Part shown: in pieces, positions 7,217-54,189 of the stretch
Position numbering within the stretch: the stretch's first letter is position 1
Layout of the letters: every line of letters begins with the position of its first letter
From: a virus
Lineage: Duplodnaviria > Caudoviricetes
Virus record (IMG/VR): IMGVR_UViG_3300046522_000316
Location: 250,290-314,289 of that record
DNA length: 64,000 bases
Reading direction: 5' to 3' (one strand)
The notes under the pieces: model-generated
The model's database searches: none
Seen by the model: only the letters and a program-made list of their open reading frames with translations
Told to the model about the DNA's origin: nothing
Program-made: the position numbers and the translations under genes

Positions 7217-8179
7217 TTAGCTCAAAGCTTCGTCGTTATTTTTTGTCAGACGACGTTTTGCTGCAATGGATACGACCGGCATACCAGCACCGCCCATCAG
7301 AACGTGACGCATATTGCAGTTGGTGGTTACAGTCAGGCCCAACGTGTCACGCAAATATGCAATCAGGTACTCAACCTTACGATCTTGGCGCACCATGTTT
7401 TCCAAATTGCGTTCGACGAAATCACGGGTCACGCCCATGATGCTTACAGCGTCGTCATCATCGGACTGATCCAGACGAATATGGCAACCTGTTTCATTAC
7501 GGACGAATCTTTCGAATTCCAGAACCGTGGTTTCGTAGCAAGGTTCGAAAGAATCCGGCTGTTCTTTTTCCTGTTCGAGCTTGCGATATTTCACCCGGTC
7601 GTAATCCGGGGCGCAGGCGTATTCGTGTTCGTCGAAACAAACCTTTACACCCTGCTCAGGAATGCAACGCGCTGTAAATGCCAGCATATCCAGAAGGTCG
7701 TTTTCCTCTTCTGTTTCATCCGCCAAATTAATCATGGCGCCAGCGAACCACAACAGACTGCCACGCAGGACAATCGTTTTCTTCGAACTGGATTTGCGCA
7801 GGATTTGGATTTTGAAGCCGGTCGCTTCGAACACCAGACTTTCGATTACGACGATTTGCTGAATCGAATGATCGTCAACTTTCAATTCCGCCAAACTGCG
7901 CTGGTCGCTACGGCTGATTTTCTCAGCAGCCGTTTTTGCAAAATCCGGAATGTCGCGTTTCTCTTCCAGCCACAAACCAACTTGGCGCAGGCGTTCGATT
8001 TGCTGCAACCAAATGCCTTGTGCGTCTTCGTCGCAGTTGTCCATATCGACGCCTTTAGCATCGTACAGCGCGCCGTCGTTGGTTGTGTTTCGTATCGCTT
8101 CCGCAAAATGCGAAGGCCCCAAGGATTCGATCACGTTACCTACTACGTTCTCGGCCAGTTCCATAGTCTTACGTCCCAT
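7217..8179 (-). CDS. hypothetical protein, first gene after a sigma70 promoter
   Basis: Start at 8179 (MGRKT) after GAGGAAG SD and the family-A leader. Confidence 0.7.
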   Translation of the reverse strand: MGRKTMELAENVVGNVIESLGPSHFAEAIRNTTNDGALYDAKGVDMDNCDEDAQGIWLQQIERLRQVGLWLEEKRDIPDFAKTAAEKISRSDQRSLAELKVDDHSIQQIVVIESLVFEATGFKIQILRKSSSKKTIVLRGSLLWFAGAMINLADETEEENDLLDMLAFTARCIPEQGVKVCFDEHEYACAPDYDRVKYRKLEQEKEQPDSFEPCYETTVLEFERFVRNETGCHIRLDQSDDDDAVSIMGVTRDFVERNLENMVRQDRKVEYLIAYLRDTLGLTVTTNCNMRHVLMGGAGMPVVSIAAKRRLTKNNDEALS

Positions 8180-8268
8180 GCTCAAACTTCCTCTAATGCG
8201 TGAGTGCTTTTGTTTCGGGCACACAATGGGCCAGCCGCCACATTACCATTCGTCGGCCCACGGGTCAA
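8180..8268 (-). promoter_or_regulatory. sigma70-type promoter plus family-A leader
   Basis: TTGACC(8268-8263)-17 bp-TAATGT(8245-8240) with extended TG; leader CACTCACGCATTAGAGGAAG. Confidence 0.7.
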
Positions 8269-8281
8269 GGTCAGGCAGGCC

Positions 8282-8578
8282 CTAGAGCGCGTAGCACTGC
8301 CGAACGGCGGGCACCGGGCCATCGGTGGTTACACGGACGGTTGCGCCCTTCTTGTCGTAGTACCGGGTAACGCTGTTGCCTGCCTTCGCCAGTTCAATCA
8401 ACGCAAGGCGCAAACCGTTTGCCCAAATGCTTAACGACCAACCGCATTCGATTTCAACAACCGAGGAAATATAACCGCGCTGCTTTGCCAAATTCTGCGC
8501 GTTACGAATCTGGTTGAAAATAATGTCTACGTCTTGTTTCGTCTGCCGTGACTTTGGCGGCATCTTCACTTTTGCCAT
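8282..8578 (-). CDS. hypothetical protein
   Basis: GAGGAAG SD; tiled ORF. Confidence 0.65.
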   Translation of the reverse strand: MAKVKMPPKSRQTKQDVDIIFNQIRNAQNLAKQRGYISSVVEIECGWSLSIWANGLRLALIELAKAGNSVTRYYDKKGATVRVTTDGPVPAVRQCYAL

Positions 8579-8981
8579 CTTTCACTTCCTCCTGCGCTTC
8601 CAGCTTGCGCATGAACAGAATTAAATCGGCGGGGATATTGTCCGCAGCGTGGAATGGGTAATCTTTAAAAGCCTCCCCCAGCCAACTCATGCTAACACAT
8701 TGACCGTCACCAATTACTTCAATTACGGAACCGACGATGCGATCACGACTTTGAATCAGGATCGCAATATCTCCGCTACTGCCCATAACCAAACTCGGGC
8801 GATTTACATCACGGTCGCGAAGGTACTGCAAAACCTGCAATGCCTCGGCAACCGTTTTGCGATTTGCGGCCCGGCCTTCACCATCACACCAACCCGGTTC
8901 CGAGGTCAGAAATAATTCCAGACGCTCGAACTGGTATTCACTTAGCGAAAAAGTCCGGGGTCTTGAGAGTTTCGATTTCAT
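8502..8981 (-). CDS. hypothetical protein
   Basis: Tiled - strand ORF. Confidence 0.6.
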   Translation of the reverse strand: MKSKLSRPRTFSLSEYQFERLELFLTSEPGWCDGEGRAANRKTVAEALQVLQYLRDRDVNRPSLVMGSSGDIAILIQSRDRIVGSVIEVIGDGQCVSMSWLGEAFKDYPFHAADNIPADLILFMRKLEAQEEVKDGKSEDAAKVTADETRRRHYFQPDS

Positions 8982-9249
8982 CTTGCAGTTCCCGAATGTA
9001 GGCGTTCTTTTCCGTCAGCAGGTTCTGCAATTGCAAAGCGTGCTGGCGCTGGCGGGCGTAACGTTCTTTCCACACACGCACCATGCGCACATAGCGATTG
9101 TTCAGCGCGTCCCAAATAACGTCTTCGAGGAATTGTTCGGATTTGATCGCGTACTGCGTTAGGAATTTCAGCGAGATTTTGCGGCCTTTGTAAACGCGGC
9201 CAGTGGTCAGCGGTTTGTTGGCGTCCGGGTGGTTGTTGTAATCGGTCAT
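8938..9249 (-). CDS. hypothetical protein
   Basis: Tiled - strand ORF, ATGA overlap. Confidence 0.6.
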   Translation of the reverse strand: MTDYNNHPDANKPLTTGRVYKGRKISLKFLTQYAIKSEQFLEDVIWDALNNRYVRMVRVWKERYARQRQHALQLQNLLTEKNAYIRELQDEIETLKTPDFFAK

Positions 9250-10013
9250 ACTGTTCGACTCATGATATCGTGGAAAGCCACGTTGAGAAATTCGCGGTGT
9301 TCGTCCTGTTTGTGTTCTACCAGTTTCGGATAGTCCGCTTGGTACAGGACGTTTTTGCGAAATTCAGCGTAGGAATTTTCTTCGTCGGTTGGCTGCTCTG
9401 CCATGGCCCAATCAAACAGACGCAGAATGTCCGGCTGCATAGAATGCTCAGCCAGTTGCAATTTGCGGTACTGGTCGATATTCACACGCGGCAACAAATT
9501 ACTGCGACCGGTCGAATAATCCAACAGCTGCAAACCAACGAACAAATAACGGAATGTTTGGCGACGACGTTTCGCTTCGTCTTCGTGCTTCACGCTGCTC
9601 ATGCTGCCGACAGTAGACCGGAACATTTCACGCGGATCGAAACAGGCTTCGCTTACACGGCGGAAAGTGTCGCGGGTAAGCTCGTTGCCGAAATAAACGA
9701 ACGGCGAATAAACAGCTTCGTGCCCGACCAGCACAGACTTTTGCAACTTGCGCAGAAACTTCGCAACGCTGAAAACACGCACGTCGCATTCTTTGCCTTT
9801 GAACATGATTTTCTGCGTGAACGATTCACGCGGGTAGCGGTAGATATCGTATTGAACATCGTGCGCCACCACAGTGAAATCGTGGTCGGAATTTTCGGTG
9901 TCGGTGCCCCACGCTTTGCTGCCAGTTTCAGCAACAAAAACCAGACGCAAACCGAGGTCACGCAACGTACTTAAAAGTTCGAAGCGTTCATCAGAAGTTA
10001 ACATGCGTTCCAT
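9246..10013 (-). CDS. DNA polymerase beta-superfamily nucleotidyltransferase (RlaP/YcgL, T4 NrdC.11-like)
   Basis: VFVAETGSKAWGTDTENSDHDF matches the GS...SDxD NTase signature. Confidence 0.8.
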   Translation of the reverse strand: MERMLTSDERFELLSTLRDLGLRLVFVAETGSKAWGTDTENSDHDFTVVAHDVQYDIYRYPRESFTQKIMFKGKECDVRVFSVAKFLRKLQKSVLVGHEAVYSPFVYFGNELTRDTFRRVSEACFDPREMFRSTVGSMSSVKHEDEAKRRRQTFRYLFVGLQLLDYSTGRSNLLPRVNIDQYRKLQLAEHSMQPDILRLFDWAMAEQPTDEENSYAEFRKNVLYQADYPKLVEHKQDEHREFLNVAFHDIMSRTV

Positions 10014-10520
10014 TTAATCCTCTTTCGGCTTCGCGGCGGTCAGCGTGAGTTTCGGATACGCCTCATGCAAAGCGATGTATGCCGTTTCGTGTTGCTCTTT
10101 GTTGACGCGGGCACCAAAGCGATTTTTGATGCTGGTCAGATTCCCGGCGTCGTCTTTGATGAAAATGGATTCAGCCGGTTCCTGATAAGCTTTCGGCAAA
10201 TTGTCGCAAATCACTTTCAGGCATACCCAACCGTTTACCTTGAATGCACTTTTCGCCAGATGCGCGATGTACTGGTCGATTTGTGCCTGCGTGATAATTA
10301 CAGCCGGTGCAGATTTCGCAGCCTGCTCCGCAATCACTTTCAGACAGGCCGGAACCGGATACAGCAGAACAAAAGTATTCATCACAATTACCTCTTCAAA
10401 CTTTCGATATGGTTCATCGACGACGACCCAGCCGAACCACCGTTTGGAAATGGTGGCCGTGCCTCCCGCCGCGTTGTTACGTTGCATTTCACGCACGGCA
10501 CTACTGTAGGAGAAAAACAT
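10014..10520 (-). CDS. hypothetical protein
   Basis: Tiled - strand ORF; start may be internal. Confidence 0.5.
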   Translation of the reverse strand: MFFSYSSAVREMQRNNAAGGTATISKRWFGWVVVDEPYRKFEEVIVMNTFVLLYPVPACLKVIAEQAAKSAPAVIITQAQIDQYIAHLAKSAFKVNGWVCLKVICDNLPKAYQEPAESIFIKDDAGNLTSIKNRFGARVNKEQHETAYIALHEAYPKLTLTAAKPKED

Positions 10521-11333
10521 TTATTCACCGTCGAGGTTGAAGAACTCCAACATCTGCTCCAAAGAACCGTGGAATTTCTGTTTCTCTCCACCGCCCAGCA
10601 GAACGTAGTAGGCCATCATCTGATCGTGCGGTTCGCCCATCGGCCACAGGTCGATCACACCGTGAATATTTACAGCTTTTGCCACACCGTCAACGTTGAT
10701 CACCGCGCACTGAACTTTTGCCAGTTTGCGAAGCATCGGATGGTCTTTATGGATGCCGAAAAGATTGCTGGCGCTGAACGAATAAACGCTGTCGTAATCG
10801 CCGTAGTATTTCGAGGAAGAATCCACAACGAACAGATGCGCCACACGACCATCAGCGTTGAGGGTAGGCCCGCGATAACGCAGCAGCATTCCCTCTTCGA
10901 AATCCGCCGATTCACCAGTCGCCAAATCGAAGCCAACAATTTCGTGACCAACGATGCACAATTGATTATGTGCTTTGGAAACCATCTGGCCGCAACTGTG
11001 CGAAAAGTTTTGTAGCACGTTGCGAATCATTTCCGCGTCGTCAGTTGGCACCGATTCGAAATTCAGCATCGACGCCATCAGCACCAGTTCATCGGCCTGA
11101 CCACGGGTGTGAATGTTGAGCGATTCAGAGTGGCCCCAGCATTTCACCGGAACGCCAGAAGAACAGAAACCGGCACCTACCACTGTCACGTCATCAAAGA
11201 CAGTTTCGAACGTCATGGAAATGCAGGTCTGCATATGTTCCGCAACGTCCGCGTGGGTCAGATGCTCATGGTGCATCAAACCGATTTCGAATTGCATGTC
11301 ACCTTTCGTGACTTGAAAGATTTCATATTTCAT
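10521..11333 (-). CDS. two-domain hypothetical protein
   Basis: Start reassigned to MKYEIF (AAGGA SD); N-domain has H...GAGF...CWGHSESL motif. Confidence 0.65.
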   Translation of the reverse strand: MKYEIFQVTKGDMQFEIGLMHHEHLTHADVAEHMQTCISMTFETVFDDVTVVGAGFCSSGVPVKCWGHSESLNIHTRGQADELVLMASMLNFESVPTDDAEMIRNVLQNFSHSCGQMVSKAHNQLCIVGHEIVGFDLATGESADFEEGMLLRYRGPTLNADGRVAHLFVVDSSSKYYGDYDSVYSFSASNLFGIHKDHPMLRKLAKVQCAVINVDGVAKAVNIHGVIDLWPMGEPHDQMMAYYVLLGGGEKQKFHGSLEQMLEFFNLDGE

Positions 11334-11575
11334 TTTCCTTTTCTCCGGAAAACCCAGTCGCCTACGCGCCGGTTGTAAAGGGGCAAGGCGCTGACAAGCA
11401 CCCATAGCATTTGCCAAAACATCAGGTACGAAAGCATGCCGTCTTTGCCTAACGTACCGGCCCGCCAATCACAGATAAGCCAGTACGTGCCGACCGCCCC
11501 ATAGATTGCTGCCAGCACGATCAACCACCACGCTTTACGCGGAATGCTTTTGAGATAATTCAGCAGACGTTTCAT
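11330..11575 (-). CDS. membrane protein
   Basis: Start reassigned to MKRLL; two hydrophobic helices. Confidence 0.6.
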   Translation of the reverse strand: MKRLLNYLKSIPRKAWWLIVLAAIYGAVGTYWLICDWRAGTLGKDGMLSYLMFWQMLWVLVSALPLYNRRVGDWVFRRKGK

Positions 11576-11784
11576 AGTCTTTGAATCCAGTCGAAAACTT
11601 CGGAACCCCAACCGGCGTAAATCATGCACACGCATGTTGTGAAAACCGACATTGCGAAAATGTTCCCGTGTGGGATCGCACGACGGGGAAGCCACATAGA
11701 CCAGATGATCAGATAGTTCAACGCAAACGGAAGAACAAAAGTCCAAAGCAGGGTGTACAGTTGAATCAGAAAATTCGGATTCAT
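11572..11784 (-). CDS. membrane protein
   Basis: Two hydrophobic segments; coupled. Confidence 0.55.
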   Translation of the reverse strand: MNPNFLIQLYTLLWTFVLPFALNYLIIWSMWLPRRAIPHGNIFAMSVFTTCVCMIYAGWGSEVFDWIQRL

Positions 11785-12515: not shown

Positions 12516-12525
12516 GGTTTGTTCC

Positions 12526-13164: not shown

Positions 13165-13171
13165 GACCAGA

Positions 13172-13777: not shown

Positions 13778-13783
13778 TTTCCT

Positions 13784-32802: not shown

Positions 32803-32848
32803 GATTTAATTCCTTTACGGTTAGGATTGTGACTGCTGATTTATCTGC

Positions 32849-32874
32849 AATGCGCACCAATCTAGATGCGCATT
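32849..32874 (-). promoter_or_regulatory. family-C intergenic hairpin (TAGATT in loop)
   Basis: AATGCGCATC-TAGATT-GGTGCGCATT. Confidence 0.55.
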
Positions 32875-32878
32875 AAAG

Positions 32879-33283
32879 TTAATCGTCAGAGTTAGGGTGA
32901 AAGTGATTCCACTCGGCTTGTTCCTGCGAGCGTTCCCACTGTGCCATTGCTTCGGCGCTGCATTCGTGACAGTCAGCGTACTCAATGTCATGTTTGCAAT
33001 ATTCCGTCTGGTCACATTCTGCATCAATGCGCCGTTCGTATTCTTCGTCGCAGGCTTCACAGCCGTCGCCGTAAATAACACCGTGGCCGCATTTCGCTGG
33101 CGGGCTGCAAATTTCACAGCCGTTAATTTCCTCGCCATGCTGGCAGTTATTGCAGTGATCGCAGCCGGTGCATTTATTGCTTTCGCAATTCTTGTACAGG
33201 GCTGTCGAAATGCACGCGTCGATTTCTTCTTCGAGCGTACAGATGTTGCACAGGCCACACGGGTTTTCGTTCGTGCATTCCAT
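32879..33283 (-). CDS. Cys-rich multi-Zn-finger-like acidic protein (134 aa)
   Basis: Start reassigned to MECTNE (GGAGGT SD); 19 Cys; three CxH-x(6-7)-CxxC units. Confidence 0.7.
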   Translation of the reverse strand: MECTNENPCGLCNICTLEEEIDACISTALYKNCESNKCTGCDHCNNCQHGEEINGCEICSPPAKCGHGVIYGDGCEACDEEYERRIDAECDQTEYCKHDIEYADCHECSAEAMAQWERSQEQAEWNHFHPNSDD

Positions 33284-33304
33284 TACATAAACCTCCGAAT
33301 TAAA

Positions 33305-33326
33305 GGGGCACCGTTTCAGATGCCCC
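33305..33326 (-). promoter_or_regulatory. family-C intergenic hairpin
   Basis: GGGGCATC-TGAAAC-GGTGCCCC. Confidence 0.5.
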
Positions 33327-33333
33327 CGGTTAA

Positions 33334-33915: not shown

Positions 33916-33930
33916 CTTTCACTTCCTCAG

Positions 33931-34146
33931 TTAAAAACGAGTGCCTACCAGTTTTGCAATAAGCGCTGGCGGGCTAATGGTTACGGTCAGCTTGCAGTAA
34001 CCGCAATCGACTTTCCACGTCGGCGGCATTGTGTGCTGCTCGCGAAAATCGCTTTCGTCACCTTGGCACGTCGCCCCGCATTTGGGGCAGGTGAAAATTA
34101 ATGGCGGTGCAGATAAAACTTTCATTGCTACCTCACTTGTCCCCAA
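33931..34146 (-). CDS. Zn-ribbon protein
   Basis: CPKCG...CGYC. Confidence 0.6.
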   Translation of the reverse strand: MGTSEVAMKVLSAPPLIFTCPKCGATCQGDESDFREQHTMPPTWKVDCGYCKLTVTISPPALIAKLVGTRF

Positions 34147-35948: not shown

Positions 35949-36413
35949 TTAATCCTCTCGGAAATTACCGCGCACATCGCACGGCATGTACAGGGTGCGT
36001 TTCTCGCCTTTGTCGTCCGTCACCTTTTTAGCGCGGAGAACTTTGTACGGGTCGAGGCCGTACACGAAATTGTCAACGCGGCAGTGAATACGCGCCCATG
36101 CAGAACCCGGCGAATATTCTTCCCACGCCACAATTGCATCACGCAGCGATGCAAAGTCGTCGCTGTATTTGCAACTTTCCTCGCCGTCGCTTTCGTACTT
36201 GCCGGTAACGACGCCGTAAGGAAAAGCAGCGTCTGCAAATTGCGCCAGCGTTTCGGCAGGCAACGCATTGTGACGGCTCGCCAAGTCGATCAACTTTTTG
36301 AGGTATTCGGTTTCCGTTACCAAACCATCCTGCAATTGCGTGTGCAGTTGGTTTGCTTCGGCGCCAGTGGCGATATTGAATTGCAGAACGGCCAACAGGT
36401 TCAGGTTGAACAT
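35949..36413 (-). CDS. hypothetical protein, first gene after sigma70 promoter
   Basis: Start reassigned to MFNLNL after family-A leader. Confidence 0.7.
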   Translation of the reverse strand: MFNLNLLAVLQFNIATGAEANQLHTQLQDGLVTETEYLKKLIDLASRHNALPAETLAQFADAAFPYGVVTGKYESDGEESCKYSDDFASLRDAIVAWEEYSPGSAWARIHCRVDNFVYGLDPYKVLRAKKVTDDKGEKRTLYMPCDVRGNFRED

Positions 36414-36503
36414 TTTAACTTCCTCTATTGCGTGAGTGTGTGAATCGTGGGCGCAACTTGCCCGACTGGATTTCATTGTACCTATGCACCGACGAACGGT
36501 CAA
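36414..36503 (-). promoter_or_regulatory. sigma70-type promoter plus family-A leader
   Basis: TTGACC(36503-36498)-17 bp-TACAAT(36480-36475); CACACTCACGCAATAGAGGAAG. Confidence 0.8.
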
Positions 36504-40740: not shown

Positions 40741-40881
40741 TCAGATGGATTTGCGAAAGCGGCGAGCGGCTTCGGTGATTTGTTTTTCGCGGGCTTCTTG
40801 TTCCATGCGAATTTGCAAATCCCAATTCCATGTCGCGGTTTTGGTTGCCGGTTTGCGTTTGGTGCTAGTTGCGTAGGCCAT
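40741..40881 (-). CDS. 46-aa early peptide
   Basis: Hand-translated MAYATSTKRKPATKTATWNWDLQIRMEQEAREKQITEAARRFRKSI*; follows family-A leader. Confidence 0.65.
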   Translation of the reverse strand: MAYATSTKRKPATKTATWNWDLQIRMEQEAREKQITEAARRFRKSI

Positions 40882-40974
40882 GATTCAAACTTCCCTAATT
40901 GCGTGAGTGGCTTTTCTGCGGGCAGCAGAAGCCCGATTGAGGCCAAAGGTATCAAAGGCCCATATAGGCGTCAA
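40882..40974 (-). promoter_or_regulatory. sigma70-type promoter plus family-A leader
   Basis: TTGACG(40974-40969)-17 bp-TACCTT(40951-40946) with TG; CACTCACGCAATTAGGGAAG. Confidence 0.7.
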
Positions 40975-42334: not shown

Positions 42335-42337
42335 TTA

Positions 42338-42610
42338 TTATGTCCTGTTGATGGCGTCGAACAATTTAATGGACGCTGATTCTGTGCCGAAGTCCGGGCC
42401 GGGCGGGTACGCCTCTATATAACGTGCCCAGTCCTCTTTCGTGTTGATGTACAGGCGCAGTTTTGTAGCGTCCGGCCCGAACGACAGTGCTGAACTTTGA
42501 TCAACGCCGTAATAACGCTGCACCACGTATTTCGATTCAGCGGTGCGTTCAAGCGTGGCGTTGAATTTCGACAGATCGTTTTCCAGTTCCTCTTTAATTG
42601 TCGGCGTCAT
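42338..42610 (-). CDS. hypothetical protein
   Basis: Start reassigned to MTPTIK. Confidence 0.55.
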   Translation of the reverse strand: MTPTIKEELENDLSKFNATLERTAESKYVVQRYYGVDQSSALSFGPDATKLRLYINTKEDWARYIEAYPPGPDFGTESASIKLFDAINRT

Positions 42611-43073
42611 CCTTTTCGTCCTCCGGTTCAACGTAGCGCACAAGGTCGCATTTGTAATAATCGCCGTCAGCGCGCTTTTCAGAACGGCGGTGATCTTTGT
42701 AGCCGTTGGAATAAAGCCAGCCTTCGTCGATCAGCGACTTTTTCAATTTCGGATCGTCGTTGTAAGCAAGGCGCGGCTGTTCCTTGATCCACACTTGTTT
42801 CGTTTCTTTCAGCCTGCCGAGTAATTCGAAGCTGTCTTCAATAAGAAGCTCAGCGCGAATTTCTGCACGGTTGCCCAACGCGGCCATTAGCCCGCCACCG
42901 GAAATTATCACAGTGGCGAACGAGCGGTTGTTATTGCCGTCGCGCAAATTTATGTGCAGATCGAATTCGGTGTCGCAGTCGTGATCTTTACGACGCACAT
43001 CGTATTCGGTTTCACGGCGGTTGACGTTTACGCGGATCGGGTAAGTTTTCCCGGCTTTCATTTCCGTCCTCAC
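42594..43073 (-). CDS. hypothetical protein
   Basis: Tiled ORF. Confidence 0.6.
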   Translation of the reverse strand: MRTEMKAGKTYPIRVNVNRRETEYDVRRKDHDCDTEFDLHINLRDGNNNRSFATVIISGGGLMAALGNRAEIRAELLIEDSFELLGRLKETKQVWIKEQPRLAYNDDPKLKKSLIDEGWLYSNGYKDHRRSEKRADGDYYKCDLVRYVEPEDEKDDADN

Positions 43074-43806: not shown

Positions 43807-45309
43807 TTACAGGGCGCGGAATTCATCGGCAGTAATTTTGCCGGTGAAAGTTGGTTGACCATCAAAGGACATGATCAGGCTGTACGGCAGTGCGCCTTTG
43901 TTCTCGGTCACGGCCACCAGTTGATCGTCACGGGTAACGATGCGAATCACGTTAACCATTTTTTCCTTGCTGCCTTTGATTACACGCACGCCCACGGTTT
44001 TGACTTGATCGCGGGTAGGCTTTTCCGAAACAACTTGCTTGGCAGCTTTTGGCGCCTTTTCAGCTTTTTCGAAATTCAGTTTTGCAGCCTTGCCGTTTAC
44101 AGTCTTGCGGGTGTTTTCAGCAGGCTTTGCAGCCGGGGCCGATGCTGCGGTTTTGCCAGCCTTCGACGGAACTTCGTGCAGGTCAGCAACGCGGAACTTG
44201 CCTTTGACCAAAACAATCGACAGCAAAGGAACACGCTTGCCGCTGGTGGTCACTACAACGCGTTCCTGCGTTTCTTTCACACGAACGATGCTCTGTACGG
44301 TTTCGTGTTTACGACCGTCCATGAAACCCTCGGCGCGCAATGCAGTAGTGCTGATTTCAGCAGCAGGCGCAGCGGCTTTCGGTGCAGCAGTTTTTGCAGC
44401 AGGTTTAACCGCAACGGTTTTCACCGGGGCTTTTTCGCTGGCGGCGTGTGCAGCTTGCGAAGCGGCCATTTTGTGGTTTTTAACCATTTTGCCTTTCTTG
44501 TCGTGGGCGATGTGCGACGAGAAATGTTTCCATGGTTGCGGCGATTGTTCGAATGCGCGAACTTCGCTCAGTGCAACGCCTTCGTATGCCCACACGGCGG
44601 CGTCTTTCAGAGTCACGAACAGGGTTTTCGTGTTGCGGTCGTACTCGGCACCGGTCAACTGAGTGCTGGTTTTGATGTTCAGGACGCGAATCGGGAACAC
44701 ACGGCCACCGGCAGCGGCTGGGGTTTCTTCTGGCAAATCTTCCTGTTCAACGGCAGCAGGTTTTTTGCCAGTGGCTTTCGGTGCAGCAGCGGCTTTTACA
44801 GGCGCCGAAGTTTCAGCCGGGGCGGTGTATTTTTCCACCATATCCAGTTTCACACGCAGCGCGCCGCGATTGTTGAATTCCAGATCGGCAACGGCGATTT
44901 TGCTGCCCTTGTCGGTTACGACGGTGCGCACGTCGTTGATTTTGGAAATGCGCAGAACGTTTTCCTTGGCGCGACCGATCATCACTACGCCCGCTTCACG
45001 AATGGCGCCCGATTTCAGTTCTTCGGCAACCGGCGCAGCGGCTTTCGGTGCAGCAGTTGCTTTCGGTGCAGCGGCAGCTTTTGCAGCGGCAGGCTTAACA
45101 GAAGCAGCAGCCGGTTTCGAAGCGTCGGCCTGTTTAGCGGCAAACTCTTTGCGCCAGTTTTTCAGGTCACGCAGTTTTACGCCGGGGGAAACTTCGGTGC
45201 CGATGCCGGGTACTTCCACGCCAGCTTTTTTGGCAGCGGAGATTTGCGCGGTCAGAGCGTCAACAGCAGCAACCAGCAGAGCAGTGGTGTTCAGAGTAGT
45301 GTTAGTCAT
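43807..45309 (-). CDS. 500-aa Ala/Lys-rich protein: three ~60-aa beta repeats plus central KTSC domain; putative nucleic-acid-binding protein
   Basis: STQLTGAEYDRNTKTLFVTLKDAAVWAYEGV...F..S....KHFSSHI matches the KTSC pattern; KPAA/PKAAA linkers; repeats at aa ~96-156, 318-376, 430-490. Confidence 0.8.
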   Translation of the reverse strand: MTNTTLNTTALLVAAVDALTAQISAAKKAGVEVPGIGTEVSPGVKLRDLKNWRKEFAAKQADASKPAAASVKPAAAKAAAAPKATAAPKAAAPVAEELKSGAIREAGVVMIGRAKENVLRISKINDVRTVVTDKGSKIAVADLEFNNRGALRVKLDMVEKYTAPAETSAPVKAAAAPKATGKKPAAVEQEDLPEETPAAAGGRVFPIRVLNIKTSTQLTGAEYDRNTKTLFVTLKDAAVWAYEGVALSEVRAFEQSPQPWKHFSSHIAHDKKGKMVKNHKMAASQAAHAASEKAPVKTVAVKPAAKTAAPKAAAPAAEISTTALRAEGFMDGRKHETVQSIVRVKETQERVVVTTSGKRVPLLSIVLVKGKFRVADLHEVPSKAGKTAASAPAAKPAENTRKTVNGKAAKLNFEKAEKAPKAAKQVVSEKPTRDQVKTVGVRVIKGSKEKMVNVIRIVTRDDQLVAVTENKGALPYSLIMSFDGQPTFTGKITADEFRAL

Positions 45310-45401
45310 TTCGAAACTTCCTAAATAGTGTGAGTGTGATACTGCGTCGGCGTGATTGCCGATTGGATTTCAGAATGCCATTACAGGCGCTTAGGTGTCA
45401 A
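45310..45401 (-). promoter_or_regulatory. sigma70-type promoter plus family-A leader
   Basis: TTGACA(45401-45396)-18 bp-CATTCT(45377-45372) with TG; CACACTCACACTATTTAGGAAG. Confidence 0.65.
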
Positions 45402-45759: not shown

Positions 45760-46197
45760 TCAGGAAAGCGGGTGCGGCTTCCGCATGTGCGGTGGTGGCA
45801 CAGGATCAATATGCGCCTCTACGTCACGATCTAAAACCGTCGCCAGAAGTTCAGCGGCAGAATTTGCAGCGTGACGATAAACGCCGTCGCCTTTTTCCCA
45901 CGTCGCGAAATATGTCGAGCCTTCTAAGCACTCGGCCAGCACTTCGCCCTGTTCTTCGGTTTCGATATAAACCGCCAGCAGTGCGCCGGGGCTGTCGCTG
46001 AACATCGGGTAGAACTTCGCAATTGCGTCATTCAGGCGCTGCGCGTCTAACTGCTGTTCGCGGTCTTCGTCTTCGAAGAGTTCAACCACGTCGTCATCGT
46101 GCAGGCCCCACAAATGTTCTAGGCGGTGCAGAATTACGGCGCGTTGCTGTTTTGTCAGAATGATTTTCTGCGGAAACGGCATTTCACTTACTCCCAT
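45760..46197 (-). CDS. hypothetical protein
   Basis: Tiled ORF. Confidence 0.6.
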   Translation of the reverse strand: MGVSEMPFPQKIILTKQQRAVILHRLEHLWGLHDDDVVELFEDEDREQQLDAQRLNDAIAKFYPMFSDSPGALLAVYIETEEQGEVLAECLEGSTYFATWEKGDGVYRHAANSAAELLATVLDRDVEAHIDPVPPPHMRKPHPLS

Positions 46198-46465
46198 CGA
46201 GTGGTGGTATCGGGGGCACGTTCCAGTCGAGTATCAAAGGCGCCCACAAAATGACAAGGTACAGCCACACGCAAAAGCCAACGAAAAACTTCCAGCGCCA
46301 CGGCATACGTTTCATGCCGTAATAAAGATTGGCGCTCTTTTCATCCGACGCGTGAGTCTGACACACGTAGTAGGTCATGAAAGCGGAAAACACGAAACCC
46401 AAAATTAAATACAGGGCAACGGCAACCGCCAGAACATAACCTAAAGCCAAAAACATTTCGTTCAC
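46184..46465 (-). CDS. membrane protein
   Basis: Two TM helices; GGAGG SD. Confidence 0.65.
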   Translation of the reverse strand: MNEMFLALGYVLAVAVALYLILGFVFSAFMTYYVCQTHASDEKSANLYYGMKRMPWRWKFFVGFCVWLYLVILWAPLILDWNVPPIPPLDGSK

Positions 46466-46812
46466 TCGGCCTCCTTTGGCAGACCGGCGAATATTCCGGG
46501 GCCAGATGTATGTGGTTCCAAACGCAGACCATGCAGACGCGCATAATCCAGTTCACGCGGCGAATATGTACGCTCTTCGGAATCCTGCCCAAAGGCAACC
46601 GATTTGCGAACGGTGATTCCGCCGTCACTGTTCACACGAAACGCCTGCTTACCGAAAACGGGAAAACCGATCAGGGCGCGTTGTGTTTTTGCGTCGAGGC
46701 GGATTTCTTTGTTTTCCAAATCCTGCACAGCGATGGTTTCGAAGAACGAAAGAACGCCTGCGTGATTAGGAACGGCCCAGCTTTCGATTTCGGTGAATTG
46801 CATCCGGCTCAT
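46462..46812 (-). CDS. hypothetical early protein
   Basis: Start MSRMQF after family-A leader. Confidence 0.65.
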   Translation of the reverse strand: MSRMQFTEIESWAVPNHAGVLSFFETIAVQDLENKEIRLDAKTQRALIGFPVFGKQAFRVNSDGGITVRKSVAFGQDSEERTYSPRELDYARLHGLRLEPHTSGPGIFAGLPKEAE

Positions 46813-46901
46813 TGTCAAACTTCCTTAATTGCGTGAGTGTCTAAATCGCAGGCACAGTTTGCCCGCCACCAAAGAATCTCAAAACCGGGTTCCGGTGTCA
46901 A
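46813..46901 (-). promoter_or_regulatory. sigma70-type promoter plus family-A leader
   Basis: TTGACA(46901-46896)-17 bp-GATTCT(46878-46873) with TG; ACACTCACGCAATTAAGGAAG. Confidence 0.6.
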
Positions 46902-47089: not shown

Positions 47090-47112
47090 GGTTTCCGTCT
47101 CCTATAGAAAGT

Positions 47113-47145
47113 GAAAAGCCGGGAACTGGCCCCGGCTTCGTTTTT
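47113..47145 (-). terminator. intrinsic terminator (possibly bidirectional)
   Basis: GAAGCCGGG...CCCGGC-TTTT with T-runs on both strands. Confidence 0.6.
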
Positions 47146-47146
47146 G

Positions 47147-48866: not shown

Positions 48867-48874
48867 GGTTTCAT

Positions 48875-48925
48875 TTCCTTGATAAAGGTCACTACTGACA
48901 AAACCCGCACATGGCGGGCTTGTCG
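48875..48925 (-). repeat. family-B leader
   Basis: AAGCCCGC-CATGT-GCGGGTTTTGTCAGTAGTGACCTTTATCAAGGAA. Confidence 0.75.
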
Positions 48926-48930
48926 TTTTG

Positions 48931-49299: not shown

Positions 49300-49314
49300 G
49301 GTCTGATCCTCAGA

Positions 49315-49994: not shown

Positions 49995-50001
49995 GATTTT
50001 G

Positions 50002-50060
50002 TTCCTTGATAAAGGTCGATTTGTTTTACTACTGACAAAGCCCGCACATGGCGGGCTAAG
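50002..50060 (-). repeat. family-B leader
   Basis: TAGCCCGC-CATGT-GCGGGCTTTGTCAGTAGTAAAACAAATCGACCTTTATCAAGGAA. Confidence 0.75.
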
Positions 50061-50068
50061 TGTTCAGG

Positions 50069-50344
50069 TCAATTAATTCGCACGGCGGGTTTCTGGCCCA
50101 TCTTGCAAACCAGCGAACCGTTTTCGTTGATGCGCGATTCTGGCGTACACATCCAGATTTGCACATTCTTGGAACGGGTAGGCCCGCAACGTCTTTCGTC
50201 CGACGCTGCAATTGCTTCGTCGAGTGTGGCGCCCTTGCCCCAGTAGCCGGAATCGCACGCGAAAATAAAATGCGTCAGCGACTGGTCAACGGTGGCCGGA
50301 TCAATGCGCAGTTCGAATTTACCCATTTTCAATTTACGAGCCAT
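50069..50344 (-). CDS. hypothetical protein, paralog of 45398..45676
   Basis: Start MARKLK (AAGGA SD); shared motif set. Confidence 0.7.
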   Translation of the reverse strand: MARKLKMGKFELRIDPATVDQSLTHFIFACDSGYWGKGATLDEAIAASDERRCGPTRSKNVQIWMCTPESRINENGSLVCKMGQKPAVRIN

Positions 50345-50345
50345 T

Positions 50346-50606
50346 TTAATTTCCTTGTCCGTGGTCACGATTCAGAACCGCTTCGATACGAATTCTGAGT
50401 GGGTCTTGCATTGGTTTCGAACGGGTGTAGCACTGCGCAATTGTTTCGCGCAGCAATTCCCGCAACTCTTCAACTTCGGTCAACGCTTTGGCCGGGGCGC
50501 CGCGTGGATCTAATCGACCGCACGCCAAGCATTCACCGTAGTACGGATCGGCGTCCGTCACATCACTGCACGCCGGGCAATATTCGTCATCGTGTTCGTT
50601 GCACAT
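50346..50606 (-). CDS. Zn-ribbon/coiled-coil protein
   Basis: CPAC...CLACG. Confidence 0.6.
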   Translation of the reverse strand: MCNEHDDEYCPACSDVTDADPYYGECLACGRLDPRGAPAKALTEVEELRELLRETIAQCYTRSKPMQDPLRIRIEAVLNRDHGQGN

Positions 50607-50609
50607 TGT

Positions 50610-51095
50610 TCAGTCCTCAAAACCGTTCGCTTTGTCGTCAGCGAAAAACGCATGAGGGAATTTGCTGCGATCAAAATTCCCGCCTGCCGGATGCGTGTCG
50701 AGATAAAATTGTGCGCGGCGTTCTGCGGTCATGCCACGACGAATAGATTCTTCCAGATCCCACAATTCTTGCATTTCGTGTTTGTGGATATATTCACCAC
50801 TTGGCTTGCGGCTCAACTCTTCGCGGCGGGCCTGCAATTTGCGGATCAGTTCGAAACCTGCCTGTTCTGGCTTGGGTTCCATTTTTGCAACCAGTTCACG
50901 ACCTTCAGCAACCCACTGATCGAAACCCAAATGGTTCAAGGCGCAAACCACGACGCTGTGAGTTTCGTACAGGCCTTTCGGTTGGTTGTCGTAGGAGAAA
51001 TAATAGTAGCCTTCACCTTTGTGCAAATTCAGGTGGTCGCAGCCGATGGCTTTCATAATGGCGGCGGTGGTAATACGTTTGGTGGTCGTGGTCAT
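50610..51095 (-). CDS. hypothetical protein
   Basis: Follows family-B leader. Confidence 0.7.
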   Translation of the reverse strand: MTTTTKRITTAAIMKAIGCDHLNLHKGEGYYYFSYDNQPKGLYETHSVVVCALNHLGFDQWVAEGRELVAKMEPKPEQAGFELIRKLQARREELSRKPSGEYIHKHEMQELWDLEESIRRGMTAERRAQFYLDTHPAGGNFDRSKFPHAFFADDKANGFED

Positions 51096-51102
51096 TTTTG
51101 CA

Positions 51103-51159
51103 TTCCTTGATAAAGGGCGATTTGTTTTACTACCGACAAACCCCGCACTTGGCGGGGTA
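51103..51159 (-). repeat. family-B leader (compensatory stem variant)
   Basis: TACCCCGC-CAAGT-GCGGGGTTTGTCGGTAGTAAAACAAATCGCCCTTTATCAAGGAA. Confidence 0.75.
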
Positions 51160-51164
51160 GTTGG

Positions 51165-51449
51165 TTAATGCGTTGTCAGGACTTCGCGAATCTCGCCGCC
51201 GTACAGGCCGGACGTTGGTATGCGTTCAATGTCCAGCGGCCAACCCGGACGCCTACGGTTTGAATATTCCGTGTCGGCGTCCATTTCTACGGTGATCGTC
51301 GCCGGGCAATTACTCCAGTAAAGAATTTCCTTCACGGTGCCCGTGCCTTTCGTGCCTTCGCGACTGACGACACGAACACGCGTCCCGGTTTTTATTTCTA
51401 TGTCGTTCTCACTCCAGTAGAAAACTGGAATTGCGTTAGGGCTTGCCAT
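51165..51449 (-). CDS. small SH3/KOW-like protein
   Basis: Start MASPNA; IKTGTRVRVVSREGTKGTGTVKEI. Confidence 0.6.
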   Translation of the reverse strand: MASPNAIPVFYWSENDIEIKTGTRVRVVSREGTKGTGTVKEILYWSNCPATITVEMDADTEYSNRRRPGWPLDIERIPTSGLYGGEIREVLTTH

Positions 51450-51459
51450 GGCGTTCCCC

Positions 51460-51792
51460 TTACAGGTCGTCGCGGTTGATTGTGAATCCCGCACCGTGGC
51501 GGTTAATGATGGTTAAAAGTCTTCCGCCTTCGGGTTCTTTCGGAAGCGGCGCGTCAGGATCATAGGTCGTAAGGTAATCGACAATATCCTGCGGCGTCTT
51601 CCAACCGTGGCCCGCAACGTAACCAACCTTTAGATGGAAATCACGTTCCAGCGACAGGCCCAAAATGTCCAAGTCCACGCGATTCTGAATCAGGTGAACT
51701 AGCGGCGTGTCGAGTTTCACCAGCACCGGATTAGTTGCGGTGGCAGTGGCTACGATTCGAAGCACTTCAGCGGCGATTACTTGCATATCCAT
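51460..51792 (-). CDS. stand-alone ACP-like protein lacking the Ppant serine
   Basis: LDTPLVHLIQNRVDLDILGLSLERDF...GWKTPQDIVDYL aligns to the ACP fold with Ser->Arg38. Confidence 0.65.
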   Translation of the reverse strand: MDMQVIAAEVLRIVATATATNPVLVKLDTPLVHLIQNRVDLDILGLSLERDFHLKVGYVAGHGWKTPQDIVDYLTTYDPDAPLPKEPEGGRLLTIINRHGAGFTINRDDL

Positions 51793-51803
51793 TTGTGCAG
51801 CCC

Positions 51804-52181
51804 TCAGAAATTAATCATACGGTTGGAGCCGGTGCGGCCCATCTTCAAAATCGCACCGTCTTTATAGTAGACCGCGATATTCGTTTCCAGACCTTCGCGG
51901 CTGTAGCAATAGAAGTCGATCACGGCGCGACCGTCTTCAGTCAATGGAACACCAGCACGGAAACCAGCCCACGAAATAAAATCGTTCAGGTCGGTGTCTT
52001 GCCAGTCTTCCGTTTTTGCAACCAGCGCAATGTTCAACGACTGTTCAATTGTGCCGTCTTGCAAATTGATACGCGTGCCGCCTTCCATTCGAGTCAGGCC
52101 CCGAACTTCGCGTTTGGTGAAGTCGCGAATCCGTTTGCATTCGTCGGCGGTCGGTTTCCATACGTTGTGTTTAGCGGCCAT
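51804..52181 (-). CDS. hypothetical early protein
   Basis: Start reassigned to MAAKHN after family-A leader. Confidence 0.7.
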   Translation of the reverse strand: MAAKHNVWKPTADECKRIRDFTKREVRGLTRMEGGTRINLQDGTIEQSLNIALVAKTEDWQDTDLNDFISWAGFRAGVPLTEDGRAVIDFYCYSREGLETNIAVYYKDGAILKMGRTGSNRMINF

Positions 52182-52273
52182 TTCAAACTTCCCTAATTGC
52201 GTGAGTGTAAGATTAGCGGACACAGAAAGTCCGTTGAGGCCCCAAAGGTATCAAAACCCCTATTGAGCGTCAA
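52182..52273 (-). promoter_or_regulatory. sigma70-type promoter plus family-A leader
   Basis: TTGACG(52273-52268)-17 bp-TACCTT(52250-52245) with TG; ACACTCACGCAATTAGGGAAG. Confidence 0.7.
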
Positions 52274-52310
52274 ACAGTTTCTGAAACGGCCCGGAAACCA
52301 AACCGGGGGC

Positions 52311-52345
52311 CAGAAACGACAAAGCCCGCACAGGGCGGGCTAAGT
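52311..52345 (-). terminator. probable intrinsic terminator (family-B type hairpin)
   Basis: AGCCCGC-CCTGT-GCGGGCTTTGTCGTTTCTG. Confidence 0.6.
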
Positions 52346-52390
52346 GGTTGCTATATAGAGAACGTGGCGCTACGGGCGCGGGGCGGGCAT

Positions 52391-52900
52391 CTAGGCTGCT
52401 TCGTTTAGCACAAGCTGCATCGCCTGACGATCCGGGTAGTACGTGGCGACGTGGCGCATGATCGAAAGCGGACGGCCCCACAGTTCCAGATTGCGGCCCC
52501 GGTCGAAATACACGGTGCAAAGTTTTTCACCGGGCAACGGGCCTTTGACGAAACGCAAACCGTCAGCGATTCGCATATGGGCCAATGCCTGTTCTTTTTT
52601 CGCCTGATAGAAATCCGTCGTCGTGTCGGTATCGGTCAGCGTTTGCAACCCGGCAATAAATCCGTGCGTGCTTGTGTTTCGTTTTGCGGCGTCAACCACA
52701 ATGTCATTCATTGGCGTGTGGTCGAAATACGCCAGCGCCTTATTTAGGAAGTCGAGCAATTCATCACGGTCGGCAACGTGCTGCTGATTTTCAAGCAATT
52801 GCAGTTGCTGCTTTGAAATGCACACGTATGCGGCAAGGTCAGCTTGACCAATGGCGAGGCGTTTGCGCCAGACTTGAATTTTGCGGCCTGTTAGTTTCAT
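52391..52900 (-). CDS. XRE/Cro-like HTH protein
   Basis: IQVWRKRLAIGQADLAAYVCISKQQLQLLEN. Confidence 0.7.
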   Translation of the reverse strand: MKLTGRKIQVWRKRLAIGQADLAAYVCISKQQLQLLENQQHVADRDELLDFLNKALAYFDHTPMNDIVVDAAKRNTSTHGFIAGLQTLTDTDTTTDFYQAKKEQALAHMRIADGLRFVKGPLPGEKLCTVYFDRGRNLELWGRPLSIMRHVATYYPDRQAMQLVLNEAA

Positions 52901-52926
52901 GCGGGAAGTCCATTTTATTCGGGCAT

Positions 52927-52955
52927 AAAAAAGCCCCGCACAAGGCGAGGCTTTT
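52927..52955 (-). terminator. intrinsic terminator
   Basis: AAAGCCTCGC-CTTGT-GCGGGGC-TTTTTT. Confidence 0.75.
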
Positions 52956-52968
52956 CCGTTACGGGGTT

Positions 52969-53403
52969 TTACTGCTGGTGATTGGCGAACAGTTCCTGCA
53001 TAAGCGCAGCAGCCTTCACCGGATCAGCATCAGCAGGAATTTCCACGCTGACCAATTGTTTCTTTGCTTTGTTGCGGGTAGTCGTGTTGTAAAACAGATT
53101 GCGGGCATTGTCGTTGATCGACTGCGGTTCACCCGGCCCGGCCAAACGAGTCAGTACCCAAATCTCACATTCGTATTCGCACGCAACCCAGTCGCCGTAC
53201 TTCTTGTGGAAACCGGAACCCGTCAGTTGATCGCAGATTTGTTCCGCGAACTGTGTACGGGTCAGCTTGGAAAATTTCATCGCGCTGAACATTGCACGCG
53301 TGTCGAAGAAAACCGTTGTCTTGTTGGCGATCTTTGCAGCATCCACCATCGAGAGAACTTGGGTTTCAACTTTTGCAATGTCAGCAGGATCGTACTTAGC
53401 CAT
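52969..53403 (-). CDS. hypothetical protein
   Basis: AAGGA SD. Confidence 0.7.
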   Translation of the reverse strand: MAKYDPADIAKVETQVLSMVDAAKIANKTTVFFDTRAMFSAMKFSKLTRTQFAEQICDQLTGSGFHKKYGDWVACEYECEIWVLTRLAGPGEPQSINDNARNLFYNTTTRNKAKKQLVSVEIPADADPVKAAALMQELFANHQQ

Positions 53404-53508
53404 CGTTTTGTTTCCTTTGCCAACCTATAGGAATGCACCGGGCGCCATGCCGGTCAGCAGTAGCCAGCGCCTAGTGTTTGTTGCTCTGTATTATTTACAG
53501 TTTTTCGA

Positions 53509-53883
53509 TCACAGGAAAATGCCTGTGCGAATCAGGTGAACAAACCCGCCCGGATCGAAGCTGAAAGATTTCTGATTGATGCGGTATTTATTCAGCAGAT
53601 TGAAAAACCGGTTCTGCTGGTACTGGTCGGTTTCGTCCAGATGTTTGGCGTCGTCGCAGGTCGCCGCTTGCAGATAGGCAACGTCTTTGTCTGCGCGTTC
53701 CGTGTCCGGGCTTTTCGTCAGGTGATTGACGTAAACGTCGTCGAGTCGAATGAGCGCGTGCAACAACGGCAACGGCACATCGGAAATCGACGGAATGTAG
53801 AAGAAAGCAATTTCTTCAGGAATTTGTTCGTAACAGAGCAAAATGCTGTCACGTTTGTGTTCGCTCAATTGCTGTTCGCTCAT
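53509..53883 (-). CDS. hypothetical protein
   Basis: GGAG SD. Confidence 0.65.
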   Translation of the reverse strand: MSEQQLSEHKRDSILLCYEQIPEEIAFFYIPSISDVPLPLLHALIRLDDVYVNHLTKSPDTERADKDVAYLQAATCDDAKHLDETDQYQQNRFFNLLNKYRINQKSFSFDPGGFVHLIRTGIFL

Positions 53884-53896
53884 AGCGTCACTCCAT

Positions 53897-54100
53897 TCAT
53901 TGTTTTACATAGACGGTAATATCGTCGTCTTGCATAACGTATTCGTCACGGGCTTGGCGGCAAACGTCCAGATCATTATCGGTTTCAATGATCACTTCGT
54001 TAACGTCACCGTCCGGCATTCTACGAAGCACGGCGGCAGAGAAACCACTGATCATCATTGCGCCCAATTTCAAACCCATCGAGGCCAGTGAATCGCTCAT
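53897..54100 (-). CDS. small early protein
   Basis: Follows family-A leader. Confidence 0.65.
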   Translation of the reverse strand: MSDSLASMGLKLGAMMISGFSAAVLRRMPDGDVNEVIIETDNDLDVCRQARDEYVMQDDDITVYVKQ

Positions 54101-54189
54101 GGAAAACTTCCCTTATTTCGTGAGTGTAGTTACGTCGGGCACAGGGGTGCCACGCTGCGCAGTATGCACTTCTAGAGCGCTGGCGTCAA
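54101..54189 (-). promoter_or_regulatory. sigma70-type promoter plus family-A leader
   Basis: TTGACG(54189-54184)-17 bp-CATACT(54166-54161) with TG; ACACTCACGAAATAAGGGAAG. Confidence 0.75.

Follow-up and report, generated by a model that had tools for sequence, protein, structure and literature searches.

A conserved promoter-leader cassette with a near-invariant box and ribosome-binding module in Lu11-like jumbo phages of Pseudomonas

Introduction

Why would a phage place the same, almost unchanging leader behind one promoter after another? This question is raised by a 64,000-nt stretch of phage DNA (positions 250,290 to 314,289 of IMG/VR record IMGVR_UViG_3300046522_000316; hereinafter, the window), in which sigma70-type promoters are followed by a leader that consists of a 5' hairpin, a CACTCAC box and a fixed ribosome-binding sequence. 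A preliminary description made from the sequence located seven such leaders between 8.2 and 54.1 kb, and all of them are present. Our analysis confirms the cassette as a genuine promoter-leader unit that is under strong selection and shared by the whole class, and for which we propose a putative mode of action.

Judging from sequence comparison, the window derives from a giant (jumbo) Lu11-like Pseudomonas phage. Its distant relatives include Pseudomonas phages HRDY3 and Lu11 (GenBank JQ768459.1; IMG record 2595698902_000001), and it shows inverted synteny with the 112-179 kb region of the complete 314-kb IMG/VR contig 3300027269_000160 (hereinafter, G001), with the counterpart proteins being mostly only 25-60% identical. 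The region is coded wholly on the minus strand, contains ~125 mostly small genes and is rich in ORFans, with Pfam matches for 12 of 120 proteins.

Seven copies of one promoter-leader unit

All seven cassettes are located on the minus strand and share the same order of elements, namely, TTGAC(N), a 17-nt spacer, a weak TAnnnT-type -10 element, a GC hairpin, 8-11 nt, the box (A)CACTCAC, 8 nt, GGAAGTT(T), 2-5 nt and ATG. TTGAC lies 62-66 nt 5' of the box, and the gap between CACTCAC and GGAAGTT is exactly 8 nt, at each of the seven sites. The promoter had been described as usually TG-extended, which holds for five of the seven cassettes (TGn), with the N17 spacer present in all. The -10 hexamers are weak, such that a generic sigma70 scan picks up only two of the seven. 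The box, GGAAGTT and ATG likewise occur at all sites; their near-invariance is broken by the box of site 4 (CACTCACACTAT) and by the ribosome-binding sequence of site 2 (GGAAGTTA).

A motif count across the genome had been suggested as a check on this family. The exact 12-mer CACTCACGCAAT is found in four copies versus ~0.008 expected (128 kb, both strands), with three additional near-copies, two with one mismatch and one with two. Of the eight CACTCAC words on the minus strand of the window, seven belong to these leaders, in agreement with the earlier assertion that the word is tied to them. A covariance model built from 19 leaders matches exactly the seven cassettes at the cut-off of E<=1. 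Intergenic promoter-like TTGAC-N16-18 sites also are confined to the cassettes, and GGAAGTTT in the Shine-Dalgarno (SD) position occurs only in the leader family, whereas other genes carry AAGGAA, GAGGAA, GGAG and similar sequences. Because intergenic TTGAC promoters and model matches coincide at the seven sites, and the GGAAGTTT SD is confined to the family, promoter and leader are one unit, inseparable in the window.

Selection on a 23-nt module

In a sequence-weighted conservation profile of 55 distinct leaders, the module aCACTCACr..aT...GGAAGTTT, the box of which reads CACUCACG, reaches 1.5-2 bits at T3, A5, C6, T11 and G15-T22, whereas its flanks (the preceding spacer and the following codons) retain ~0.2 bit. 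The box is also better kept than the promoter, in which the -10 element shows only ~0.8 bit at A and T, and TG ~1 bit. There are no indels between the box and GGAAGTT among 57 distinct leaders, and positions 18-22, the anchor of the alignment, read AAGTT in all 57 distinct rows of the model-derived alignment. Since the flanks within the cassette are saturated and the module is invariant, the module is, as judged from this comparison, under strong purifying selection on the letters themselves rather than similar by residual ancestry. An ATG lies within 10 nt of the module in 44 of the 55 leaders; the module is kept in the 11 others, suggesting that it is not only a ribosome site. The proposal that the leader is a dedicated cis-element on (putatively) early transcripts thus gains strong support from conservation across relatives. 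Dyad symmetry of the module (7/12 pairs around AATT, counted by eye) was considered and is not significant when the freedom to choose the centre is taken into account.

The leader in related phages

The model identified 9 leader copies in Lu11, 11 in HRDY3, 12 in G002 and ~11 in G001, all of these being complete relatives, and most of the copies fall in the part that shows synteny with the window. In PaBG, a more distant phage, there were no model matches at E<=1, and a k-mer survey disclosed no comparable repeated leader. In G001, the six strongest leaders are located at 122.8-170.2 kb, in the window-syntenic part; all seven window cassettes have positional counterparts there, and six of these precede an orthologous first gene. 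The remaining one, cassette 6, is followed in the window and in Lu11 by a phrog_19710 protein (51804-52181) and in G001 by a 75-aa ORFan (G001:124340-124564) with a homologue in neither the window nor Lu11.

This replacement directly behind a conserved cassette recalls the promoter-early stem-loop (PeSL) cassettes of T4-type phages, which combine a sigma70-like early promoter, an SD and a start codon (PMC2839356, PMC4122927), with the stem-loop positioned 5' of the promoter, as a terminator (PMC4122927). Both also repeat an intergenic composite of promoter, SD and start codon, placed ahead of numerous short early genes that are little conserved. PeSL cassettes are found at the borders of gene insertions, deletions or replacements between close relatives; here, cassette 6 has the one replacement and the other six cassettes are syntenic. 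The leader differs from PeSL in that its conserved hairpin is downstream of the -10 element, inside the transcript, in the additional invariant 23-nt box-plus-ribosome-site module, and in the positional stability of the set between distant relatives. The similarity among cassettes could, in principle, result from duplication and recombination of an inherited promoter-ribosome site unit that aids gene shuffling, with the box having no regulatory meaning. Although this explanation suits the repeated composite in an ORFan-rich region, the terminators just 5' of three of the seven cassettes and the unrelated ORFan behind cassette 6 of G001, we consider it highly unlikely. The positional counterparts of all seven in G001 indicate that the cassette set is old, and invariance of the module next to saturated neutral flanks requires selection on the letters. 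Furthermore, strain-level indels are found at gene borders, not at cassettes: near-identical strains from soil, plant and food metagenomes lack the small genes at 42335-42615, 46183-46469 and 51450-51802, each a whole-gene indel.

Part of the cassette had been noticed before. Three features of the Lu11 record, sigma70-like (early) promoters of the form TTGACA(N15-17)TATAAT-like, lie immediately 5' of three of the nine Lu11 leaders, but the record annotates the promoter hexamers only, leaving the hairpin, the box and the fixed ribosome-binding site unannotated. The Lu11 promoters are, then, prior, predicted knowledge, whereas the leader module is undescribed as far as we searched: we found no paper on the leader, none on HRDY3 and none joining 'phage Lu11' with 'early promoter', and no Rfam family matched at E<=1 across the whole window. 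Among 185,579 prokaryote genomes, there were no exact copies of the module, and a degenerate pattern gave nine matches, about the chance number; host mimicry by the module was rejected, given that prokaryote copies do not exceed chance. An isolated AGACACTCACGCAAT-ATGGGAAGTTTAAA was observed in Pseudomonas sp. GD04091 (L158:971-992, minus strand), ~130 nt 5' of a low-molecular-weight phosphatase/ArsC-like gene, lacking TTGAC at the family distance, a hairpin and an ATG. This copy is probably due to chance, or possibly a phage-derived relic.

Coordinates of the cassettes

Cassette 1 (8177..8268; covariance model score, 65.3 bits) comprises the -35 element TTGACC at 8268-8263, the -10 element TAATGT with TGn, the box CACTCACGCATT at 8206-8195, GGAAGTTT at 8191-8184 and ATG at 8179-8177; its first gene (7217-8179) encodes a 320-aa protein with a weak KH_1 match. 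Cassette 2 (36411..36503; 60.8 bits), immediately preceded by a terminator-like hairpin at 36534-36511, has TTGACC at 36503-36498, TACAAT, a hairpin at 36463-36449, the box at 36438-36427, GGAAGTTA at 36423-36416 and ATG at 36413-36411, the start of gene 35949-36413. The spacer of its promoter, CCGTTCGTCGG, is conserved in five genomes. As an observation in its own right, this spacer (36475-36503, minus strand; TTGACCGTTCGTCGG) is kept among five diverged genomes, unlike those of the other six promoters, and includes CCGTTCGTC, which we take to be an AlgR (LytTR-family) binding word of P. aeruginosa.

Cassette 3 (40879..40974; 74.3 bits) contains TTGACG at 40974-40969, TGaTACCTT, a CGGGC/GCCCG hairpin at 40935-40919, the box at 40909-40898, GGAAGTTT at 40894-40887 and ATG at 40881-40879, and precedes the gene for a 46-aa basic protein (40741-40881). 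In cassette 4 (45307..45401; 54.3 bits), TTGACA at 45401-45396 and TGgCATTCT are followed by a UCGGC/GCCGA hairpin at 45362-45347, the divergent box at 45336-45325, GGAAGTTT at 45321-45314 and ATG at 45309-45307; the 500-aa product of the first gene (43807-45309) contains a KTSC domain. The -35 element of cassette 5 (46810..46901; 69.5 bits), TTGACA at 46901-46896, shares nucleotides with the stop codon of the preceding gene and is followed by TGaGATTCT, a 7-bp hairpin with G-U at 46866-46848, the box at 46839-46828, GGAAGTTT at 46824-46817 and ATG at 46812-46810. Its first gene (46462-46812; 116 aa) is 75% identical in G001 and 71% in Lu11.

Cassette 6 (52179..52273; 75.5 bits), downstream of a terminator-like hairpin at 52341-52323, consists of TTGACG at 52273-52268, TGaTACCTT, a CGGAC/GUCCG hairpin at 52233-52217, the box at 52207-52196, GGAAGTTT at 52192-52185 and ATG at 52181-52179, which opens the phrog_19710 gene. 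Finally, cassette 7 (54098..54189; 47.4 bits) starts within the 3' end of a LytTR gene with TTGACG at 54189-54184, followed by CATACT, a GGCAC/GUGCC hairpin at 54151-54138, the box CACTCACGAAAT at 54126-54115, GGAAGTTT at 54111-54104, ATG at 54100-54098 and a gene for 67 aa (53897-54100).

A 5' hairpin of free sequence

The GC hairpin, previously reported for every site, is found at six of the seven, with site 1 of the window being unconvincing (-1.5 kcal/mol), even though the orthologues of this site form 11-13-bp stems. Folding energies of single leaders are no better than those of shuffles, and MAFFT combined with RNAalifold missed the hairpin through misalignment, so that structure-aware realignment to the model was needed. 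In the model alignment, 80.7% of the helix cells are paired, compared to 73% in column shuffles (none of 500 reached the observed value) and 23-47% with the partner slid. One pair of the helix is compensatory, occurring as GC in 28 and as CG in 13 leaders. Covariation, which the preliminary description had proposed to look for across related phages, is seen in the hairpin. In an independent scan, perfect stems of -5 kcal/mol or below were detected in 42 of the 55 leaders, as opposed to 28% of shuffles. These 55 leaders have 39 distinct 5' arms, loops of 3-10 nt and a stem end 5-11 nt 5' of the box. The hairpin starts 35-40 nt past the T of TTGAC, with the -10 element ending at +28, which places it 0-5 nt from the expected transcription start, and the window hairpins also begin 0-5 nt past the predicted start.

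Stem-loops at the 5' terminus shield mRNAs from 5'-end-dependent decay, as in the ompA and T7 gene 10 leaders. Pairing that is kept while the sequence is free, at the very 5' end, fits such protection rather than a boxB-type, sequence-specific protein site and, by analogy, the leader hairpin most likely shields the 5' end from this decay. The ompA 5' untranslated region and the T7 gene 10 leader combine 5'-terminal stem-loop stabilisers with an enhancer and an SD, and have in common with the phage leader the order of hairpin at the very 5' end, unpaired segment and ribosome site. However, unlike the Lu11-like leader, they do not form a multi-copy invariant family, and the leader box lacks the complementarity to 16S rRNA that characterises the T7 epsilon enhancer.

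Ribosome affinity and the module

Given that the module includes the SD, a ribosome-only element has to be considered, in which the box would be a standby site or enhancer for the 30S subunit and the module just a strong start site favoured by the phage, such that no dedicated factor would be needed. The ATG within 10 nt of GGAAGTTT in most leaders is in line with this possibility, as is the fact that UARGGAAGU, read from the sequence, can pair with eight of the nine terminal bases of 16S rRNA; in addition, site 2 of the window uses the module as its SD, whereas the gene of the relatives has its own SD ~35 nt further. The predicted strength of the site is nevertheless average: SD/anti-SD pairing (20 nt before the start versus the 16S 3' tail) amounts to -5.8 to -6.7 kcal/mol in the leaders, compared to a mean of -5.95 kcal/mol for the 118 other genes, which get by with varied SDs. 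At -6.3 kcal/mol, the pairing of the leaders is far below the optimum: a single A-to-G change, to GGAGGU in the leader context, would give -13.3 kcal/mol, yet A18 is never replaced. The start region is predicted to be unpaired with the same probability as in other genes (0.53 versus 0.50, p=0.19), the pairing of the box with Pseudomonas 16S rRNA (-13.0 kcal/mol) is equalled by 91 of 300 shuffles, and that of the whole module with 16S rRNA does not rise above shuffles. Because SD pairing, openness and 16S complementarity are all average, ribosome affinity, as modelled here, does not account for the invariance of the module. The plain translational enhancer offered as one option at the outset accordingly finds no support and, with 11 of the 55 modules lacking a nearby ATG, a ribosome-only element appears rather unlikely to us.

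Site 2, terminators and antitermination

The clearest separation of the module from the ribosome site is seen at site 2 of the relatives: in the orthologues from HRDY3, G001, G002 and contig 3300045988_165726, GGGAAGU provides the 5' arm and ACUUCCC the 3' arm of a hairpin (L132:1541-1600 in HRDY3, L042:1840-1900 in G001, L149:1541-1600 in G002, and L080), which is followed by a U tract in three of the four, and the actual SD and ATG are located ~35 nt past the module. The window has lost the ~35-nt insert, and the module directly serves as the SD of the orthologous gene. This comparison suggests that conservation of the module extends to leaders with a separate ribosome site, and that the module can nevertheless act as such a site. 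The hairpin variant has the appearance of a leader terminator, and cassette 2 is the last sigma70 promoter before ~28 kb devoid of such promoters.

These observations bear on processive, nut-like antitermination, whereby the hairpin-plus-box RNA would load a factor on the polymerase and allow read-through of intrinsic terminators in early operons. Like lambda nut sites and rrn boxB-boxA, the early leaders present a promoter-proximal hairpin and a conserved box, with terminators downstream. Four terminator-like hairpins between cassettes 6 and 5 (51096-51164, 49995-50068, 48867-48930 and 47090-47146, minus strand) are each followed by genes without a sigma70-type promoter, the ~28 kb downstream of cassette 2 pose the same demand, and the site-2 leader hairpin of the four relatives, located after the box, would be a terminator in need of override. 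The order of hairpin and box resembles rrn boxB-boxA, the box shares CnCUC...CAAUU with Pseudomonas rrn boxA, and the constant distance between promoter and box would fit as well. However, the box lacks the UCUUUA core, and CACUCACG matches neither the boxA consensus (C/U)GCUCUUUA nor the Pseudomonas rrn boxA CGCTCTTTAACAA. Whereas boxB has a conserved loop that is read by an N-type protein, the loops and stems of the leader hairpin are not conserved even among the leaders of one genome. Searches of G001, G002, Lu11 and HRDY3 for NusG paralogues and Q proteins were negative (N-like peptides were outside these searches), the rigid coupling of box, ribosome site and ATG would be left unexplained, and site 2 of the window itself has no leader terminator. 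Specifically, the nut-like site raised earlier is unlikely to be of the lambda N/boxB kind, considering the variable loops and stems, the departure from boxA and the lack of NusG-like or Q matches. In its general form, antitermination is a serious rival, although we regard it as unlikely.

Three of these four terminator-like hairpins also are members of a second repeat family ('Family B'; 48867-48930, 49995-50068, 51096-51164 and 52323-52341, minus strand), which is composed of a GC hairpin, GCCCGC..GCGGGC, with TTTGTC, followed by a conserved stretch that ends with CCTTTATCAAGGAA before ATG. Family B lies inside operons fed by the promoters of the cassettes described here.

A DNA-level alternative and candidate factors

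The module could also be a DNA operator, that is, a 23-bp site at ~+27 to +50 bound by a phage protein that blocks elongation from each of the early promoters. Candidate proteins are encoded in the early region, namely, a stand-alone LytTR protein (54172-54546), a KorA-like protein and a Myb-like protein. The LytTR protein is present in G001 and Lu11 and absent from PaBG, a distribution that mirrors that of the box; LytTR sites of the AgrA/AlgR type have a GTT core, and one such core is contained in AAGTTT. The constant distance to the promoter points the same way, as does an inverted orphan copy of the box with GGGAAGTT that lies directly 5' of the -35 element of a TTGAC/TACCTT promoter at G001:268229-268255 and at ~115,100 in G002. 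This copy is not followed by an ATG, the downstream gene encodes a 116-aa hypothetical protein, and no equivalent was found in Lu11, which detracts from its weight. Further difficulties are the lack of evident dyad or direct-repeat symmetry in the module, the single orientation of all leader copies relative to transcription, their linkage to a ribosome site and an RNA hairpin, and the complement downstream of GGGAAGU in the site-2 orthologues, which implies that the sequence matters as RNA. A DNA operator thus strikes us as improbable.

Several candidates for a factor acting on RNA were considered. The KTSC protein, nominated as a binder by the preliminary description, is simply the product of the first gene behind site 4. 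Binding sites of RsmA/CsrA have the motif A(N)GGA, generally in two or more copies and with a preference for hairpin loops; in the leader, the letters A-R-GGA are indeed present, but as a single site that is unpaired or in a stem rather than in a loop. Words of the type UCAY are among those that KH domains can recognise, and UCAC forms the invariant core of the box; yet the KH protein of site 1 is a poor universal factor, given that its KH_1 match is marginal (23.2 bits, cut-off 21.5), that it is only 24% identical in G001 and that it is missing from Lu11. This protein has no match in PDB or Atlas, and Atlas offered nothing usable for the best-conserved leader gene, that of cassette 5. A trans-encoded antisense RNA was rejected as well: when the whole of G001 was scanned for duplexes, the only matches were the antisense strands of the leaders themselves and one orphan.

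The module as a putative RNA operator

The reading that we favour, with somewhat less than even confidence, is that the module is an RNA operator present on all early messages and read by one putative factor, in combination with a protective 5' hairpin. Transcription by the host RNA polymerase and sigma70 would start at the TTGAC-N17-TAnnnT promoter, with its weak, often TG-extended -10 element, at a position that we infer from the promoter. No RNA polymerase subunit genes are among the Pfam matches of the window. A phage sigma factor has been described for this phage group (PMC7412058). The transcript would open within 0-5 nt with the short GC hairpin, of free sequence and kept pairing, as a generic stabiliser. 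Approximately 9 nt further, it would expose the rigid, single-stranded 23-nt module aCACUCACr..aU...GGAAGUUU, with a 3' half that provides the first gene with its ribosome-binding site. Near-invariance across relatives suggests that one factor controls all early messages, and we infer that a single sequence-specific trans factor, made by the phage or the host, reads box and ribosome site as one operator at the RNA level. Because the conserved site includes the SD, this factor would either compete for it with the 30S subunit or cleave the message at that point, such that all early messages would be switched together, in whichever direction, in the manner of T4 RegA/RegB.

In T4, the RegB endoribonuclease and the translational repressor RegA act on early mRNAs (PMC3014915). 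The proposed parallel lies in class-wide control of early messages via short single-stranded sequences at ribosome-binding sites. The targets of RegA and RegB, however, are short or degenerate (A+U-rich and GGAG, respectively), whereas the leader site is long and rigid, with an invariant GGAAG that is never GGAG, and no RegA or RegB homologue was found in G001, G002, Lu11 or HRDY3.

Several points weigh against the RNA operator. Part of the leader family was gathered with patterns that fix CACTCAC and GGAAGTT, although pattern-free model searches of four whole genomes left the picture unchanged. The near-constant distance between promoter and box (61-66 nt) is not required of an RNA operator and suits a promoter-linked or DNA-level mechanism. 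In the site-2 orthologues, the paired GGGAAGU would hide half of the proposed operator. The 'early' class is itself deduced from the promoter type and from predicted features of the Lu11 record. Finally, no trans factor for the module was identified: the RegA, RegB, CsrA, NusG and Q families were not found in G001, G002, Lu11 or HRDY3, the sole RegB match in these relatives (E=0.04) being below the cut-off. Of the mechanisms offered at the outset, a site for a specific RNA-binding factor is the one that best fits the invariance.

More tentatively, the TCAC box together with GGAAGUUU may be the operator of an RNA-binding regulator that has so far escaped recognition, either phage-encoded or a hijacked host protein. 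The messages with this operator would then constitute an 'early regulon' of Lu11-like jumbo phages that is defined post-transcriptionally, and in certain genomes, as in the site-2 orthologues, the operator would also gate a leader terminator before a long delayed-early block.

Other features of the window

A third intergenic family is found on the minus strand at ~27.9, 32.8, 33.3, 35.9, 37.6, 39.5 and 45.7 kb and consists of GGGCA/GCGCA-TCTAGAATGG-TGCCC/TGCGC hairpins that lack a U tract. Words of the CTGTAAATAA type occur at ~27.9, 53.5 and 58.4 kb, and AAACTGTAAATA/AAACTGTAAACA is present in ~21 copies in Lu11 and likewise in G001. The Lu11 record contains 16-nt features labelled 'putative middle/late promoter'. 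Two gaps in the gene calls (32803-33333 and 33916-34127, minus strand) contain small cysteine-rich open reading frames with several CxxC pairs, which probably are unannotated zinc-ribbon-like genes. Public runs that contain window DNA are metagenomes of rhizosphere, soil, plant and food origin. A single metatranscriptome, from soil, yielded six pieces of 166-322 nt, none of which covers a leader.

Implications

A 23-nt leader at every early operon that is kept better than the promoter itself would provide a handle on the timing of early expression by the host polymerase. In an isolated phage-host pair, such as Lu11 and P. putida, or with HRDY3, the leader could be employed as a bait in pull-down experiments and as a target of reporter mutagenesis. 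It may also serve as a marker for annotating the early operons of metagenomic jumbo phages, and could double as a compact expression cassette for Pseudomonas.

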